DNA of 64,000 nucleotides. Origin: an uncultured Aliarcobacter sp. (GTDB lineage: Bacteria > Campylobacterota > Campylobacteria > Campylobacterales > Arcobacteraceae). A program made the translations under genes and the position numbers. The notes under the pieces are model-generated. The model did not search any database, was not told the origin of the DNA, and was given only the letters and a program-made list of their open reading frames with translations. The DNA lies in contig CAXXLV010000002.1 in assembly GCA_963664305.2 (NCBI GenBank), forward strand, positions 896,001 through 960,000, in the 5' to 3' direction. Below are positions 56,649-64,000 of this stretch, piece by piece (position 1 is the stretch's first letter; each line of letters starts with the position of its first letter).

Positions 56649-57386
56649 TTGATTTTTGAATTATTAGCTTTTGGTTTAATTGCTGGTTTTATGTCTGGTT
56701 TTTTTGGAATTGGAGGAGGAACTATCCTTGTTCCAATTTTAGTTCTTGCTGGATTTATGATGAAAGAAGCCGTTGCAATATCTATCATGCAAATGGTTTT
56801 TTCTTCAATTTACGGCTCATTCTTAAATGTAAAAAAAGCTCAATATGTTTTAAAAGATGGTTTAATAATTGGCTTTGGAGGTTTCGTTGGTGGACTTCAA
56901 AGTGGATTTATTGTAAAAAATGTTTCAAATGAATTTTTACAATATATCTTTATAGCTGTTTTAGTTTTTTCTATAGTTAAAATCTTTTATTCTCCAGCTC
57001 AAAGAATAGATGAAGAGACGAAAAGTCAAAATAAATTTATCTTATTTGTAATTGGTTTTTTCATTGGAGCAGTTGCAATGAGTATTGGAATTGGTGGTTC
57101 TATAATTTTAGCTCCAATTTTAGTAGGTTTTTTAAGATATGATTTAAAAGTAGCAACAGCACTTGGACTATTTTTTGTAATTTTTTCTTCTGTTGCAGGA
57201 TTTATTTCTCAATCTTTACAAGGATTAATGCTTTATTATGAAGGTTCTATTATAGGTATTGCTTCATTAGTTGGAGTATATTTTGGAATAAAAGTAAAAA
57301 ACATGGTTCATTCTACTTCATATAAAAAGTACGTTTTACTTTTAAGTATAGTAGTTCTTATTATTATGATTTATAAGACTTTTTAG
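56649..57386 (+). CDS. TauE/SafE family sulfite exporter
   Basis: GFFGIGGG and SIGIGGS repeats, multiple TM segments. Confidence 0.9.
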   Translation: MIFELLAFGLIAGFMSGFFGIGGGTILVPILVLAGFMMKEAVAISIMQMVFSSIYGSFLNVKKAQYVLKDGLIIGFGGFVGGLQSGFIVKNVSNEFLQYIFIAVLVFSIVKIFYSPAQRIDEETKSQNKFILFVIGFFIGAVAMSIGIGGSIILAPILVGFLRYDLKVATALGLFFVIFSSVAGFISQSLQGLMLYYEGSIIGIASLVGVYFGIKVKNMVHSTSYKKYVLLLSIVVLIIMIYKTF

Positions 57387-57396
57387 TCTTATAAAT
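57369..57396. terminator. Hairpin spanning the stops of the convergent tauE-like and helicase genes
   Basis: ATTTATAAGACT-tttt-AGTCTTATAAAT, 12-bp stem. Confidence 0.65.
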
Positions 57397-58615
57397 TTTT
57401 TTGCTCTCTTAATTTATCTTTTTTACTTTTTCTTTTACCTTTTACAGGCGCATTTCCTTTTTCTTTTTTTATTGGTTTTCCAATTAATTCAAAACTTTCT
57501 ATCTCTTCTTTTTCTAATTTTATGTCGCATCTCTTTTCTATCAAAGAAAAATGTTCAAAATCTTCTAATCCTATAAATGATATAGCAATTCCACTTTTTC
57601 CAGCTCGTCCAGTTCTTCCAATTCTATGTATATAATCAGCTGTTGCTCTTGGTAAATCATAATTTACAACACAACTTATATCATCCACATGAAGTCCACG
57701 TGCTGCAATATCTGTGGCAAATAAAATCTTTATTTTTTTATTTTTAAAATCCTCAATTGTTTTATTTCTTTCATCTTGAGTTAAATCAGCATGAAAAGAA
57801 GAGGCATTAAATCCATATTTTCTAAATTTTGAAGCTATATTGTCACAAGCTCTTTTATTTGCCATAAAAACTAAAATTTGTTCCCAATTATTTGTAGATA
57901 CAAGATGTCTTAAAAGTGGGCTTCGATTTTCTATATTTACAGTTATTGCTCTTTGTTTGATACTTTGTACTGTTGGTGTTTCATCAATAGAAACTTCGAT
58001 AGCATTTTTTGTAATTTTTGAAATAATATTTTTTACTTTTAAAGGATAAGTTGCAGAAAAAAGAAGATTTTGTCTAGTTTTTGGAATCATTTCTAAAAGT
58101 GTATCTAACTCTTGTTCAAATCCTAAATCAAGCATTTTATCAGCTTCATCTAAAACCAAAAATTCTAACTTCGATAAATCTAATTGTTTTTTATCTAATA
58201 TATCAACTAATCTTCCAGTAGTTGCAACAACTATATCACAACCTTTTTGAATATCTAAAAGTTGAGTTGAAATACTTTCTCCACCAATAACACTCACTAT
58301 CTTTGGTTTTTTATCTAAGTATTTAGAAAATAAAGAAAAAGTATGAGAAATTTGTAAAGCTAATTCTCTTGTAGGAGTTAAAACTAAAACTTTTACTTTA
58401 GCTTTTCCTTCATAATTTTGTTTTGAAAAAAGTTCTAAAATAGGCAAAACAAAACTTGCTGTTTTTCCACTTCCTGTTTGAGCTTTTGCCATAATATCTT
58501 TTTTTTCTAAAATAAGTGGGATTACTTTTTCTTGAATTGGTGTTGGATTTTTATAATTACTCTCTTTTAAACTTTTATTTAAATCTTGAGAAATGATTAG
58601 TTTTGAAAATGGCAT
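57389..58615 (-). CDS. DEAD-box RNA helicase (RhlE-like)
   Basis: PTPIQ, AQTGSGKT, PTRELA, DEAD, FSAT, ARGL, HRIGRTGRAG. Confidence 0.95.
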   Translation of the reverse strand: MPFSKLIISQDLNKSLKESNYKNPTPIQEKVIPLILEKKDIMAKAQTGSGKTASFVLPILELFSKQNYEGKAKVKVLVLTPTRELALQISHTFSLFSKYLDKKPKIVSVIGGESISTQLLDIQKGCDIVVATTGRLVDILDKKQLDLSKLEFLVLDEADKMLDLGFEQELDTLLEMIPKTRQNLLFSATYPLKVKNIISKITKNAIEVSIDETPTVQSIKQRAITVNIENRSPLLRHLVSTNNWEQILVFMANKRACDNIASKFRKYGFNASSFHADLTQDERNKTIEDFKNKKIKILFATDIAARGLHVDDISCVVNYDLPRATADYIHRIGRTGRAGKSGIAISFIGLEDFEHFSLIEKRCDIKLEKEEIESFELIGKPIKKEKGNAPVKGKRKSKKDKLREQKNL

Positions 58616-58788
58616 ATAAAAAATCCTTTTTTTTGATTTTGTATTTTATGATTATTTACCTTTGTTTGAAGATAGATTATCAAATCTCTATTTTTACTTT
58701 TAGTTTCTATACTATATAATTCCAAAAAATTTTCACTAAAGGCTTACAAATCGAAAACTCCATTTTACAAATAAAACTTACTTTAGTT

Positions 58789-59217
58789 TTGATATATGAA
58801 TTTTTGTTATCTTCTTACGATGTTCCTGTTTGGCTATTACTGATTATCTCTATTTTAGCTTTAACTTCAATTTTTAAATTTTTTATCTATCTTCAAAATC
58901 GTTCAAAAATAGAATATTTAAAATATATTGAAGATAATATTTATAATGCAAAATGGAAATGGAAATGGTCAAAAAATAAAATTGTAGATTTACAATGTTA
59001 CTGTCCAACTTGTGATGCAGTTTTAGTTTATGATGATACATCTCACATAAAACCAACTGAACTATTAAAAACTGAATTTATATGTGAAAATTGTAATTCT
59101 CAAATTATTGCAACTATTCGTGGAGGAAATAAAAACTACGCTATAAATGCTGTAAAACGAGAAATAGAAAGACGTGTTAGAACTGAAGAGTACAAAACAA
59201 GTATTAAAGATAATTAA
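58789..59217 (+). CDS. Hypothetical membrane-anchored zinc-ribbon protein (start uncertain)
   Basis: N-terminal TM, then CPTC...CENC. Confidence 0.65.
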   Translation: MIYEFLLSSYDVPVWLLLIISILALTSIFKFFIYLQNRSKIEYLKYIEDNIYNAKWKWKWSKNKIVDLQCYCPTCDAVLVYDDTSHIKPTELLKTEFICENCNSQIIATIRGGNKNYAINAVKREIERRVRTEEYKTSIKDN

Positions 59218-59226
59218 TACTTGTTT
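59195..59226. terminator. Probable bidirectional terminator
   Basis: AAACAAGTATTAA-agataa-TTAATACTTGTTT, 13-bp stem between convergent genes. Confidence 0.7.
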
Positions 59227-59231
59227 CTTCT

Positions 59232-59741
59232 TTAAAACCAATATTGTGGATAATTTCTATTTTTATGTAAATTATTATAAAAAAGTGCCACAATTACTAA
59301 AATAATAGACCCCAATAAAGTTGGAAAAATCAAATAATCCCAATTTGCACCAAGTAAAAAAACTATCAAAGGATTCGAACCTGCTGGTGGATGAACTGTA
59401 TTTGTTGCAAGCATAACAGCAATTGCAGTAGCAAGTGCTAAGGCCATACTCCAATATTCATTTCCTAAAAAATGTAAAAAAGCTAATCCAATAAATGTAG
59501 ATAAAAAATGCCCTAAGATTACATTTCTTGGTTGTGAAAATGGACTTTTTGGAAATCCAAATAATAATACACATGAGGCTCCAAAAGAACCCATAACTAA
59601 AAGATTATCATAAGATTTTGTAAGATAACCAATAATAAATATAGAAATAAATCCACCAAACCAAGCAAAGGCTATTTCACTAATTGACGATTTTGTTGGA
59701 AGTGCTTCGCCCTGCCCTTTAAATTTTTTAAAATAATTCAT
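59232..59741 (-). CDS. HPP family membrane protein
   Basis: SFGASCVLLFG.P.SPFSQPRN, HPPAG, YPQYW. Confidence 0.94.
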   Translation of the reverse strand: MNYFKKFKGQGEALPTKSSISEIAFAWFGGFISIFIIGYLTKSYDNLLVMGSFGASCVLLFGFPKSPFSQPRNVILGHFLSTFIGLAFLHFLGNEYWSMALALATAIAVMLATNTVHPPAGSNPLIVFLLGANWDYLIFPTLLGSIILVIVALFYNNLHKNRNYPQYWF

Positions 59742-59769
59742 ATTTTTCCTTTGTAATATTTTATATCAA

Positions 59770-59784
59770 CCAAACGATTGTTTG
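59770..59784. promoter_or_regulatory. TetR operator, copy upstream of the HPP gene
   Basis: CCAAACGATTGTTTG, identical over 15 bp to the site at 60371. Confidence 0.8.
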
Positions 59785-59807
59785 TTTAAAAAAGGTAAAA
59801 AAAATCA

Positions 59808-60362
59808 TTAGATTAAACTAATGATTTTTTCACCTACTTTTAGATAATTTTGCGATGAATCATATAAATTCATCATCATTATGGTACCTTGAGTTAAAGC
59901 TACATACTCTTTGGCTAGATTTGATGCTTCAGTTTTTGAGTATTTGTTCTCAAAGATTTTTATTAAAGCATTTTCCCAATCTGTAAAATAAAGCTTTATC
60001 TCTTCTTTAAAATCAAGATTTAAACTACTAGCTTCCAAAGCTAAATTTCCAAGTAGACAACCACCTTTACTATGTAAAAAATAGTCATCAGTTTTTTTGA
60101 CTATTAGCTCGATTTTTTGTTTATCACTCAAATCACTTCTATAAGCAATAGAAAAAATCTCTTTTTTAAAATAATCATGAATATACTTCAAAGATTCTAA
60201 ACCTATCTCTTCTTTACTTTTAAAATGATGATAAACACTTCCTTTTATAAGCCCGCAAGCCTCAGCTATATTTGCCATTGAAGTATTTGAATATCCTCGT
60301 ATTTTAAAAAGTTTAATAGATTCTTTTAAAATCTCTTCTTTTGATGTTTTTTTGATTGCCAT
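59808..60362 (-). CDS. TetR/AcrR family regulator (NemR/YxaF-like C-terminus)
   Basis: LF..RGY..TSMANIAEACGLIKGSVYHHFKSKE HTH, GCLLGNLALE. ATG 60362 preferred because the track's TTG lies inside the operator. Confidence 0.93.
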   Translation of the reverse strand: MAIKKTSKEEILKESIKLFKIRGYSNTSMANIAEACGLIKGSVYHHFKSKEEIGLESLKYIHDYFKKEIFSIAYRSDLSDKQKIELIVKKTDDYFLHSKGGCLLGNLALEASSLNLDFKEEIKLYFTDWENALIKIFENKYSKTEASNLAKEYVALTQGTIMMMNLYDSSQNYLKVGEKIISLI

Positions 60363-60370
60363 AATTTTAT

Positions 60371-60386
60371 CCAAACGATTGTTTGG
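60371..60386. promoter_or_regulatory. TetR operator, autoregulatory copy
   Basis: CCAAAC-GATT-GTTTGG palindrome between a minus-strand TAAAGT -10-like box and the ATG. Confidence 0.8.
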
Positions 60387-60430
60387 TAAAACTTTAGCTT
60401 ATGGTAGCTTAAAGAATTATTCATAAAATT

Positions 60431-61111
60431 TTATTTTAATTTATTTTCTAAATTCACCATTTTAAATATGTGAGTATAAATATTAACATCCAAAGCATTT
60501 TCTACCATTTTGTATTTATCATCTTCTGACATTTCATTCCAACCCTTTAATTGTTTATAATCAATACCTTTATATGATAATAATTCTTCAGGTATAATTT
60601 CTTGAATTCTTATTTTTAATTTTTTTATATCTTCATCTAAATTAATTGAAATTGGAGTTATAAAATTATTACTAATAATTTTCAACATTAAATTAAATAA
60701 AATATCTGAAAAATATTCATAAAATTTTGTACAAGTTGCATCTTCAGTTAAAGGGAATAGAAGTTTAGTATCTTCAAATAAAAATATAATATTATATTTT
60801 GATAAATTTGAATGAGCCAATAAATTTCTTATTCTTCTAATTCCATATTCTTCATTGTTCAAAAACTCATATTCAATTTCACTAATATAATTTTTTTCTT
60901 TAAGTTTTTTAATAATATCTACAAAATTAATTTTATCAAATTTTCTTATTTGAGATTTAGCAATATTTTCTAAAATATTAAACAAATATATTAATGAAGC
61001 ATGTCCACTAAAATTCTCAACTTTAATTATTTCTTCACAAGATATTAACAAATTTCCATAATATCGTGAATATTGCCAAATATAACCTATTACTTCTTGT
61101 TTTGTATACAT
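60431..61111 (-). CDS. Hypothetical protein with HEPN-like RxxxxH motif
   Basis: 226 aa, helical; NILE early and IRRIRNLLAHSN centrally. Confidence 0.65.
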   Translation of the reverse strand: MYTKQEVIGYIWQYSRYYGNLLISCEEIIKVENFSGHASLIYLFNILENIAKSQIRKFDKINFVDIIKKLKEKNYISEIEYEFLNNEEYGIRRIRNLLAHSNLSKYNIIFLFEDTKLLFPLTEDATCTKFYEYFSDILFNLMLKIISNNFITPISINLDEDIKKLKIRIQEIIPEELLSYKGIDYKQLKGWNEMSEDDKYKMVENALDVNIYTHIFKMVNLENKLK

Positions 61112-61137
61112 AAAATATAAATTCCCTTATTTCATAT

Positions 61138-61503
61138 TCATAATTTCTTCAAAGCATTATGTTCAAACAAAAACATCAAAGTTTCATTTACATAATATTT
61201 TATAGAATCTCTTGTGATTTTATCTAGCTTATATACTTTTTGTCCTCGAATACTTTTTCCTTTTCCAAAAAGAAAATTGTATTTATCACTTATATATCGA
61301 CCTCTAAACCAACCAATATGAATATAATTTTCTTTGACTTTTATATAACAAAATCCACCCTCTTTGGAATAAAGCGTAGTTATATTTTCACTATATTTTT
61401 CTTTTGCATCATTTACAATACAAATTTTTATAAAATCTCTTACATTCAAAAAAAGTTCAGCATATTCGCCATTGCTATCTTTTTCAAAAGAGGTTCTTTT
61501 CAT
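61138..61503 (-). CDS. Hypothetical protein, DUF1801-like
   Basis: FCYI...YIHIGWFRG...LFGKGKSIR pattern. Confidence 0.6.
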   Translation of the reverse strand: MKRTSFEKDSNGEYAELFLNVRDFIKICIVNDAKEKYSENITTLYSKEGGFCYIKVKENYIHIGWFRGRYISDKYNFLFGKGKSIRGQKVYKLDKITRDSIKYYVNETLMFLFEHNALKKL

Positions 61504-62070
61504 CTATTTTATTTTTAACTCTTTAGAAGTATCATAAACCAGTTCATAATAGTTATTGTTGTTATATGAAAACTCTTTTATAACTTCAAGTCCAATTTTT
61601 CTAGTGTGTGCTTCATACGACCTTTGATTTATTTTATTTATAAAAGTTACAAGGATAGGAAATCTTTTTGCCATATTCTCTCTTGCAAAATCAAAAAGTT
61701 TTTCTAAAACTTGTTTTCCTCTATACTCTTTATCCACACAAACAGGACCATATTGATATGAATTTTTTGTAGTTAATTTTTGTCCTATATACTCCAGATT
61801 TTTTAAGTCTTCTATCATATAAACAAACATTGGCCATCTTGACCAAAAATCCCAAGATGCACTCATTACATAAGCAATTACTCTTTCATCTTCAACTGCT
61901 ATAAATAAACCTTGCTCTAAAGTTATCAAATCAACCATTTGCTCTTTTGTAAAAGCAGTTGTTATAAATCCATCTTTTTTATCTTCTTCATTTATAGTAT
62001 TGATTTGATATTTTGCGTGTAACTCTAAAACTTTTTCTATATCATTTATTTTTGCTATTTTAAAATTCAT
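61504..62070 (-). CDS. GNAT family N-acetyltransferase
   Basis: DGFIT, YQYGPVCVDKEYRG, FINKINQRSYEAHTRK. Confidence 0.85.
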   Translation of the reverse strand: MNFKIAKINDIEKVLELHAKYQINTINEEDKKDGFITTAFTKEQMVDLITLEQGLFIAVEDERVIAYVMSASWDFWSRWPMFVYMIEDLKNLEYIGQKLTTKNSYQYGPVCVDKEYRGKQVLEKLFDFARENMAKRFPILVTFINKINQRSYEAHTRKIGLEVIKEFSYNNNNYYELVYDTSKELKIK

Positions 62071-64000
62071 ATTTTTCCTAATTGTTTTTTTATTAGATAA
62101 TTTAATATACCACCATATTTAAAATATAAAAGCTCTAGTTTATTATCAAGTCTTGATAAAACTTTTAGATATTTTACCTCATCAGCTTTTTTTATTTCTA
62201 TTTCAAATTTCGAATTTATTTTTAAATCTGTTGTTTTGATAGTTATTAATTCATCACCTTTTAACTGCTCTAAATCATCTTCAATTAATTCAAGGGGTAA
62301 AATCCCTACTTTTATCAAATCTTCTTTAAAATTCTTTTCAAATGATTTTGCTACTATTACTTTTATACCTAATAGTTTTAAACCTTTAATTACTTGAATA
62401 TTATTATATGAAGTTGCAAATTTTTTATTTGATAAGATAATCAATGGCTTATTTTGATTTTTCATTTTTTGTGCATATTCATAAATAGTAACTATCTCTT
62501 TATTTTCAAAATCTTTTGTATATCCACCCTCTTTTGGGAATACTATTTTATTTTTTATTTTACTTATTGAAAAAAGACCTCTTTTTAAAACCTCAACATC
62601 ATCATATCTTTTTTCATAAGTTCCAAATTGGTCTGGTTTTAATCCTATTGATTCAAGATAAAATCCAACTTGAGTATATGGTGTTATTTCTCCATAAGGT
62701 ACTATATCTTTTGTTGTTATCTCTTCATCAAAAATTGCCAATATTTTTGCTTCATCTATATTTATATACTCTTCTTCTTTTTCTTCAAACATATCTAATA
62801 CTTTTTTATCAAAAGAGATTTCTTTTAGATTTTCAATAGTCTCTTTTTTCATATAGATATCTTTATACTTATTTTGATAACAAGAAGAATCTATACTTAG
62901 TAACTTACTATTTACTTCATTTGTACTAGGCCATATATCACTTAAACAAATATCTTGATATATAGTATCTTTAGTTATATCAAAATTTATATTTCCTTTT
63001 AAACTATATGCTAATACTAAAGCTGGCGACATAATCCAAGAAGATTTTATTTTATTATTAGAGTTATTCTCATCTAAAGAAGATATTGATACAACATTTA
63101 GATTAAACTCTTCTATCTCTGATATTAGTTCTTGAGTTAATTCTTTTGAACTCTCTATTACTATTTTAATTCCTAGATATTCAAAATATTTTAATAAGTC
63201 TAGTTTTTCTAGATACTCTTTTATCTGTAAAGAGTTTAATTCAAAAAATATTTTTATATTTTTATTTATTTGTACTTTTAGTTCACAAGCCTTTTTTGCA
63301 ACTAAACAAGCTTCTATCAAAAGTGTTAAACTTGAATTTGATGAAATAGTTGCTATTAAAATATCATTGTCTTTTACTACTCTTCCTTTCTTAAAAGAGT
63401 CTAACTTCAATGGTACATCTTTTACTTCAATTCTTTCAAATCCCTTTTTATAAATTATTGATGGTTTAATTGTTGAAAGATTAAATCTTATATATTCATC
63501 ATAAGTTAAATCTTGATTGTCATACATACCTTGTTTGATAAAATACTCTTTTATTAATGATGCATCAACTCCTCTTGTTTTTTCCACATAAGAAAGAGTA
63601 TTTTCATCCATTCCAAAATATCCACAAACTGCACCAAACTCTATAATTGTATTTGATAATGTAACTCTATCTTCTATACTGATATTTTTTAAACCGATTC
63701 CATAAAACTCAACTATCTTATTTTTTATATTACTTATTTTTAATATCTCTATTAAGGCATTTACAATATCACTTATACTTACACCTAATGATATATTTCC
63801 AAATAGCTCTATTCCTACTACACTTGGAAATTCTAAAATTATTGGTGAACCTAATATTGCAGATTTAATATCTATCTCGTTTAGTTTTATTCCTAATATT
63901 CCTATAGAGTTTGTCATACTAACTTGAGTATCAGTTCCAACAAGGGTTTCTGGAAATAAAAATATATCATTAGCTTTTTGTCTTGAATATAACATAGTTG
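62067..64000 (-). CDS. Aconitase A homologue with degenerate catalytic and Fe-S motifs (5' end likely outside window)
   Basis: Collinear with AcnA: PETLVGTD, VVGIEL.G, IVEFYG.GL, MSPALVLAYSLKG, LSDIWPS, GILPL, YGGIL. The frame is open to the window edge. Confidence 0.88.
   Translation of the reverse strand, partial: TMLYSRQKANDIFLFPETLVGTDTQVSMTNSIGILGIKLNEIDIKSAILGSPIILEFPSVVGIELFGNISLGVSISDIVNALIEILKISNIKNKIVEFYGIGLKNISIEDRVTLSNTIIEFGAVCGYFGMDENTLSYVEKTRGVDASLIKEYFIKQGMYDNQDLTYDEYIRFNLSTIKPSIIYKKGFERIEVKDVPLKLDSFKKGRVVKDNDILIATISSNSSLTLLIEACLVAKKACELKVQINKNIKIFFELNSLQIKEYLEKLDLLKYFEYLGIKIVIESSKELTQELISEIEEFNLNVVSISSLDENNSNNKIKSSWIMSPALVLAYSLKGNINFDITKDTIYQDICLSDIWPSTNEVNSKLLSIDSSCYQNKYKDIYMKKETIENLKEISFDKKVLDMFEEKEEEYINIDEAKILAIFDEEITTKDIVPYGEITPYTQVGFYLESIGLKPDQFGTYEKRYDDVEVLKRGLFSISKIKNKIVFPKEGGYTKDFENKEIVTIYEYAQKMKNQNKPLIILSNKKFATSYNNIQVIKGLKLLGIKVIVAKSFEKNFKEDLIKVGILPLELIEDDLEQLKGDELITIKTTDLKINSKFEIEIKKADEVKYLKVLSRLDNKLELLYFKYGGILNYLIKKQLGKI

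Follow-up and report, generated by a model that had tools for sequence, protein, structure and literature searches.

An aconitase A relative of Arcobacteraceae with erased iron-sulfur ligands and catalytic motifs

The gene and its locus

The window analysed here is a stretch of 64,000 nucleotides from the genome of an uncultured Aliarcobacter sp. (genome G000, contig C2). At its end lies a long frame related to aconitase A (AcnA), referred to below as the pseudo-aconitase.

Window 62067..64000, minus strand: pseudo-aconitase A, codons 153-795 plus stop, from the frame and from profile, Pfam and structure-database matches
G000:C2:958067-960454, minus strand: full pseudo-aconitase gene, 795 codons, the first 152 lying past the window end
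Window 61504..62070, minus strand: GNAT-like gene whose start overlaps the pseudo-aconitase stop, a local neighbour rather than a conserved partner

An earlier note on this DNA had described an open frame collinear with AcnA; the frame is indeed uninterrupted and collinear, but the start of the gene does not lie inside the window, as it extends 456 nt beyond the window end to a TTG codon at G000:C2:960454, preceded by an AAGGA ribosome-binding site. The overlap of the stop with the GNAT start, also reported there, is found as ATGA at window 62067-62070. Among curated families the top matches are AcnA models, matched end to end and far under their cut-offs (TIGR01341, 445 bits against 945, that is under half; NF006757, 469 bits against 686). 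The protein carries both aconitase Pfam domains, PF00330 and PF00694, its closest solved structures by sequence are IRP2 (top, E 1.9e-75) and then IRP1, an ESM Atlas search returned aconitase clusters only, and the identity to an intact AcnA from Arcobacteraceae amounts to 32%. Four genes of G000 carry PF00330: the pseudo-aconitase, LeuC, and intact AcnB and AcnD, which are the separate intact aconitases that the earlier note had proposed to look for. The acnD gene sits in a prpB-prpC-acnD-prpF run, far from the pseudo-aconitase gene; the names in this run and of other G000 genes were assigned from motifs and are what we take them to be.

Intact orthologues occur in 52 of 184 Arcobacteraceae genomes from eight genera, a count that includes one copy cut by a contig end (G175) and leaves out fragments under 700-740 aa; the same search gave three short forms and, from draft assemblies, four copies that are partial, broken or split. 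In the host's own genus the gene was found in seven of 43 genomes and not found in the other 36. The mean identity among 67 representatives of the family is 48%. A class-wide search of 285 genomes outside Arcobacteraceae, scoring two candidates per genome, gave no AcnA-type match apart from two AcnD-like ones. In databases the family members go by 'aconitate hydratase AcnA' or 'aconitase family protein', so that an enzyme unable to function is included in metabolic reconstructions.

Among 46 loci that were read, 29 have a divergent uvrA, which is directly adjacent at 19 of them, and 28 have a convergent tauE-cysE-speA-hisS run, these neighbour names being our assumption. No conserved tandem neighbour was found across the 46 loci, and GNAT comes next in three of them only. 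All five inspected genomes without the gene retain the locus with other inserts there; one has GNAT alone and another the 121-aa/HEPN-like/TetR/HPP run alone. The locus is therefore taken as ancestral and the downstream run as a passenger, and the idea that the gene heads a GNAT/DUF1801-like/HEPN-like run is not supported in that form. The GNAT label is itself weak (PF00583 at E 3.5e-4); the downstream 121-aa gene has no Pfam match, and the 226-aa gene matches DUF4145 alone, at E 0.048, below the cut-off.

The region between the pseudo-aconitase and tauE (window 57389-62070) is an insertion hot spot with a gene content that differs between strains, comprising genes for a DEAD-box helicase, HPP, TetR, the 226-aa protein with the weak DUF4145 match and the 121-aa orphan. 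Window 58789-59217 (plus strand) codes for a membrane-anchored, zinc-ribbon-like protein of 142 aa with two CxxC motifs and Pfam matches below cut-off, which recurs at the same locus in G010 and G033; in one contig GNAT is joined directly to this gene. For the tauE-like gene (window 56649-57386 versus L151) the G000-G011 dS is 0.71, compared to 0.16-0.44 for the neighbours and 0.60 for one of them, which suggests replacement by recombination.

Erosion of the active site

The features of the eroded protein are given below; domain boundaries were set by motif after what we take to be the domain layout of IRP1.

Window 63915..63932, minus strand: DTQVSM (residues 175-180), the eroded DSHTTM motif, Asp alone kept (alignment)
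Window 63456..63827, minus strand: domain 2 (about 210-333), with the smallest pooled pN/pS (0.20) in the selection analysis
Window 62865..63455, minus strand: domain 3 (about 334-530), formerly the Fe-S domain; G098, G099, G102 and five database clusters lack it through an in-frame deletion
Window 63330..63353, minus strand: ATISSNSS (368-375), first cluster Cys and IRE-contact Thr/Asn gone (alignment)
Window 63147..63173, minus strand: GIKIVIESS (428-436), 7-residue gap at the CxxC loop, other two cluster Cys gone
Window 63057..63083, minus strand: SSLDENNSN (458-466), the GNRNFEGR motif without both substrate Arg (alignment)
Window 62070..62768, minus strand: domain 4 (about 563-795), best conserved in the domain-3-less lineage
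Window 62598..62615, minus strand: EKRYDD (614-619), structural Arg616 kept (51/52), substrate/IRE Arg replaced by Tyr
Window 62496..62534, minus strand: domain-4 hairpin KEGGYTKDFENKE (641-653) with family-specific K641, D648 and E653
Window 62382..62417, minus strand: ATSYNNIQVIKG (680-691), without the catalytic Ser, the substrate Arg and the Asp/Trp of the C-bulge pocket (alignment)

Only two of 19 scored active-site residues are retained, D175 and the equivalent of IRP1 E302, the assignments of D125/H126 and C503/C506 adjoining gaps and depending on the alignment. All 19 are present in 93 of 93 intact AcnA and 18 in 40 of 40 AcnD, where one position is His instead of Gln. The IRP1 residue numbers (including C437, C503 and C506) were placed by motif and are, together with the catalytic roles, presumed here. 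The alignment with AcnA, AcnD and IRP1 bears out the earlier claim that Fe-S ligands and catalytic motifs are erased; its eight motif replacements and four structural motifs are all in place.

None of the three cluster cysteines remains in the pseudo-aconitase; all three are present in seven and none in 18 of the 52 orthologues. The catalytic Ser has become Tyr and survives in a single orthologue of the 52; the histidines H126, H207 and H679 are kept in 12, 21 and three. The substrate arginines R536, R541, R713 and R780 are lost throughout in the pseudo-aconitase (0/4) and retained in 13, 4, 19 and 15 of the 52 orthologues. A replacement set of Cys and His was looked for in the family, and none was found: the five cysteines of the pseudo-aconitase all lie off the cluster site, and C277, the only conserved one among them, is a non-ligand present in intact AcnA too. 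In the hairpin KEGGYTKDFENKE, K641, D648 and E653 reach 99-100% in the family versus 36-58% for the top residue in intact AcnA, which makes it a candidate partner surface.

Origin and course of decay

In the tree the orthologues group into one clade (support 0.998) inside AcnA, and the pseudo-aconitase goes back to one AcnA present in the ancestor of Arcobacteraceae. Two trees put the clade at different places within AcnA; its nearest intact matches are AT-rich, and their closeness may reflect composition. Across 198 family sequences (52 from genomes and 146 from protein searches, partly redundant), the full set of 15 core residues never occurs, the maximum being 13, and the family spans a graded series from 13/15 down to one, with the host's copy among the most eroded of the 52 orthologues. 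Each of 20 site residues was lost four to 17 times (Dollo count, 64-leaf tree), and 18 of the 20 survive in both basal clades, hence the ancestral protein had lost little of its active site, and the lineages eroded in parallel. Intact AcnA has 259 invariant columns, 78 of which are still conserved in the family, and about 45 further columns are conserved in the family yet different or variable in intact AcnA.

G047 and G044 have both the dead copy and an intact, separately acquired acnA (L039:4136-6784 and L040:4179-6827), situated directly behind what we take to be nitrogenase-like genes and before presumed molybdate-uptake genes. This intact acnA is not sister to the pseudo-aconitase clade.

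In one lineage domain 3 has been wholly deleted, in frame, in three genomes and five further database clusters.

L143:4359-6374, L144:4533-6464, L145:4347-6215 (G098, G099, G102): domain-3-less forms, 620-670 aa, at the ancestral locus
P0243-P0247, P0262: domain-3-less database entries, 620-670 aa

These forms make up one branch (support 0.97), that is, a single deletion; they lie 0.21-0.45 apart in dN, contain no stop and show a dN/dS of 0.37. The identity within the lineage is 65% for domain 4 and 53-56% for domains 1 and 2. Ten family-specific polar residues, largely acidic or mixed, are kept without domain 3 (D19, T153, K163, E169, D319, K641, D648, E653, K703 and D727). Domain 3 is dispensable in this lineage.

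Selection and expression

In 40 of 40 orthologue pairs over 70% identity, which are not independent of one another, dN/dS amounts to 0.06-0.27 (Nei-Gojobori), compared to 0.06-0.18 in 32 matched AcnD pairs; one more distant pseudo-aconitase pair gave 0.34. For the G000-G011 pair the value is 0.113, inside the interval of 0.02-0.27 spanned by 16 frames of the neighbourhood. Neutral simulation at the synonymous distance of this pair (0.2) produced a mean of 34 stops and no open frame in 200, and at distances of 0.05 and above likewise 0/200 frames stayed open. Selection extends across all four domains, with a pooled pN/pS of 0.20-0.24 compared to 0.45 in the linker. In view of the dN/dS values the gene is not a neutral pseudogene, and with 52 intact frames the frameshifted or neutrally evolving orthologues that the earlier note had allowed for are not borne out.

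Among 1727 frames the codon score ranks at the 3rd percentile, that of acnD at the 99th, and the codon use of the pseudo-aconitase resembles that of weakly expressed genes. The median pI of the family is 5.4. In the expression data (four runs, all assembled contigs, two recorded as RNA), the two RNA libraries contain contigs of 150-206 nt over the gene at a depth of 2-3, with DNA carry-over possible. A promoter scan, with 49 sites against 44.8 expected, was uninformative.

Predicted structure and RNA contacts

A template-free AlphaFold model (pLDDT 89, pTM 0.87) predicts the four-domain fold in the order 1-2-3-linker-4, with a Foldseek probability of 1.0 to IRP1. The model superimposes better on the open, IRE-bound IRP1 structure 3SNP (TM 0.81, rmsd 5.0) than on the closed structure 2B3X (TM 0.67, rmsd 8.8); for the control, an intact AcnA modelled from the same 134 alignment rows, the TM values are 0.68 and 0.89, respectively. 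This model pair suggests that the pseudo-aconitase is constitutively open and apo-IRP1-like; the open model may also reflect merely lost inter-domain contacts. The structure prediction called for earlier thus returned a kept fold, predicted open, which fits the apo-IRP1-like shape.

The IRE contacts comprise R269, S371, K379, T438, N439, S681, P682, R713, R780, D781 and W782, as given in PMC3048577 and PMC4184891. Only the Pro of the C-bulge pocket is identical in the pseudo-aconitase, and most contacts are lost family-wide: R713 is retained in 19, R780 in 15, N439 in six and R269 in three of 52 orthologues, with W782 (48/52), P682 (42/52) and S681 (37/52) better kept. Lys or Arg occupies the RNA-facing positions of IRP1 R269 and R728 in 36 and 27 of the 52. 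A scan for canonical IREs with C-bulge, upper and lower stem found none in the G000 genome; two elements had the upper stem only, and control loops gave 0-4.

A second eroded clade

A profile search of 1.84 billion representatives uncovered a second clade of full-length eroded AcnA, apart from that of Arcobacteraceae in the tree and assigned to Alphaproteobacteria where named.

L216:5926-8640; L234-L238, L247, L257: alphaproteobacterial eroded AcnA loci
P0380, P0383, P0386, P0388, P0394, P0395, P0403, P0417, P0418: alphaproteobacterial eroded AcnA entries

Among the best 29 loci in the order around one MAG, the unpublished genome G521 being left out, 21 encode fully intact AcnA, one a form with 13/15 residues and seven forms with 0-2/15; many of the 29 have one shared downstream gene. 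The search for citrate synthase was positive in 19 of the 21 genomes with intact AcnA, in none of the seven eroded-AcnA MAGs and not in the 13/15-residue genome either, and a search of six of these seven MAGs for other aconitases gave LeuC-sized frames only, in three; as the MAGs are kin and of unstated completeness, these absences are not proven. A gene of roughly 300 aa, presumably Clp-like AAA, often follows the eroded AcnA and also intact copies. The AcnA of L240 (G523) is changed at the catalytic Ser and at one His only; its MAG gave no citrate synthase match, and the protein may mark the onset of the same decay.

Both dead clades keep the same 58 of 279 invariant columns, where 29 would be expected if independent, and the same 80 are lost in both, covering the cleft and the IRE contacts. 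The 58 shared columns look structural, so that no common binding site is visible. A genome scan with the alphaproteobacterial alignment retrieved almost only ordinary AcnA; of 71 frames read, one was eroded throughout. Outside both groups, other full-length eroded AcnA with 0-7/15 core residues are P0376, P0330, P0369, P0424 and P0396, the last one named Gammaproteobacteria.

Proposed role

Chemistry has been lost while frame and fold remain under selection, and the gene is dispensable in many genomes. A separate, selected AcnA derivative beside intact AcnB and AcnD agrees with the dedicated non-enzymatic protein that the earlier note had in mind, and we are largely confident that the pseudo-aconitase is non-enzymatic and under selection. 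In Arcobacteraceae the chemistry is carried out by AcnB and AcnD, so that the active site of the pseudo-aconitase decayed piecemeal in many lineages with the fold kept by selection. With the cluster and the cleft contacts gone, the protein probably stays open, apo-like and blind to iron, and it would hold a macromolecular partner via the outer surfaces of domains 1, 2 and 4. A low-abundance binding or scaffold protein is what we tentatively favour, at somewhat below even chances, with a protein more likely than an IRE-type RNA as the partner. The largely acidic or mixed family-specific residues, the median pI of 5.4 and the poor codon score suit this reading, and the binding of FBXL5 by domain 4 of IRP2 is a precedent. 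Against it stand the lack of a conserved tandem neighbour, the structural look of the 58 columns shared by both dead clades, the 36 of 43 genomes of the genus in which the gene was not found and the advanced erosion of the host's copy; the family-specific conserved residues may also be inherited internal contacts.

Two suggestions of the earlier note fare less well. An iron-independent RNA-binding regulator, in the sense of IRP1-type recognition, is unsupported since most IRE contacts have gone, one lineage does without domain 3 and no canonical IRE was found in the genome; a partnership with a true aconitase is unsupported as a general reason since no other aconitase was found in the six MAGs searched from the alphaproteobacterial clade. 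A wider version of the former, in which the RNA side job of AcnA would be frozen open in an iron-blind, constitutive nucleic-acid-binding regulator with non-IRE or co-evolving targets, as in IRP2, appears rather unlikely. The open model as opposed to the closed AcnA control, the low-expression codon usage, Lys or Arg at some RNA-facing positions and the mostly kept W782 and S681/P682 would suit it, as would the apo-AcnA of Mycobacterium, which binds an IRE-like RNA according to PMC7527780. However, the contacts of PMC3048577 and PMC4184891 are mostly gone, domain 3, which makes up half of the loop-binding site, can be dispensed with, no canonical IRE with a lower stem was found in the genome, a change from Arg to Lys is what drift should produce where the genome is AT-rich, and the same basic residues are lost in the alphaproteobacterial clade too.

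Slow decay of a useless yet translated gene, selected only against misfolding and heading for deletion, is improbable. Although outright loss is frequent (the locus is empty in five of five inspected genomes), dN/dS lies above that of AcnD in most pairs, AT drift and a poor codon score are evident and the conserved columns are mostly structural, 52 intact frames extend across a tree whose branches measure 0.4-0.8 substitutions per site, neutral frames fail to stay open (0/200) even at 0.05, the gene survived under selection after the clean deletion of domain 3, and some positions gained conservation; in G177, G089 and G166 the gene is split or broken, and these assemblies are draft or 81-94% complete. 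We give still less credit to a dead paralogue that binds or regulates AcnD (or AcnB) or scaffolds methylcitrate enzymes. All 40 carriers checked (of 52) have intact AcnD, the pseudo-aconitase occurs in none of the 53 family genomes that gave no AcnD-level match, and an AcnA-IDH complex exists as a solved-model entry, judged by its title; on the other hand, the co-occurrence tracks relatedness, AcnD is present in many genomes without the pseudo-aconitase, the pseudo-aconitase gene is remote from the prp operon, and the alphaproteobacterial clade endures, a search of six of its MAGs having found no other aconitase and a search of seven no citrate synthase in 7/7. That the cleft was rebuilt, or alternative metal ligands recruited, in a new enzyme or small-ligand sensor is very improbable: no cleft residue is newly conserved, replacements vary by lineage, no new Cys/His set has arisen and domain 3 can be deleted, even though seven of the 52 members keep three Cys, up to 13/15 core residues survive, and some members may thus still bind a cluster.

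Beyond the favoured binding or scaffold protein, it is conceivable, if doubtful, that bacterial AcnA has a second, ancient function needing neither Fe-S cluster nor active site, IRE residues or domain 3. If so, this function would be exposed where the chemistry is redundant (Arcobacteraceae) or pointless (the alphaproteobacterial clade, citrate synthase not found), and the dead copies would be natural separation-of-function mutants for finding it.

Comparison with known systems

Aconitase is the textbook moonlighting enzyme; the side job known for it is RNA binding, which is switched by iron and relies on the active-site cleft. The two bacterial lineages described here retain the scaffold without cleft or switch, one sub-lineage even dropping the cluster domain, and two groups with the same loss point to a non-enzymatic job of aconitase. 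No description of the family was found in the literature searched, subscription journals lying outside the search, and a pseudoenzyme review (PMC10211241), searched for the term, makes no mention of aconitase. The graded residue series and the minimal three-domain form, with cultivable species, make the non-chemical role of aconitase directly testable.

With AcnA the pseudo-aconitase shares the collinear four-domain fold and its place inside the AcnA trees; it differs in lacking the cluster cysteines, in keeping 2/19 instead of 19/19 site residues, and in its open rather than closed model. The paralogue AcnD (TIGR02333, Fe/S 2-methylisocitrate dehydratase), described for A. butzleri in PMC2147049, occurs in the same genomes, but at 25% identity it belongs to a separate clade and locus and its active site is fully intact. 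The apo form of IRP1, in its IRE-bound open structure, is the best structural match of the model (TM 0.81), yet in contrast to IRP1 and apo-AcnA the pseudo-aconitase has no Fe-S switch, has lost most IRE contacts and can do without domain 3 in one lineage, and no canonical IRE was found in its genome. In animals, IRP2 is an aconitase-derived, AcnA-type scaffold kept without activity; its aligned row retains Cys and nearly all site motifs, in contrast to the wholly erased cleft of the independently derived pseudo-aconitase. With catalytic residues lost and frame and predicted fold kept under purifying selection, the pseudo-aconitase resembles other pseudoenzymes and parallels IRP2; it does not qualify as either an active AcnA or an IRE-binding IRP.
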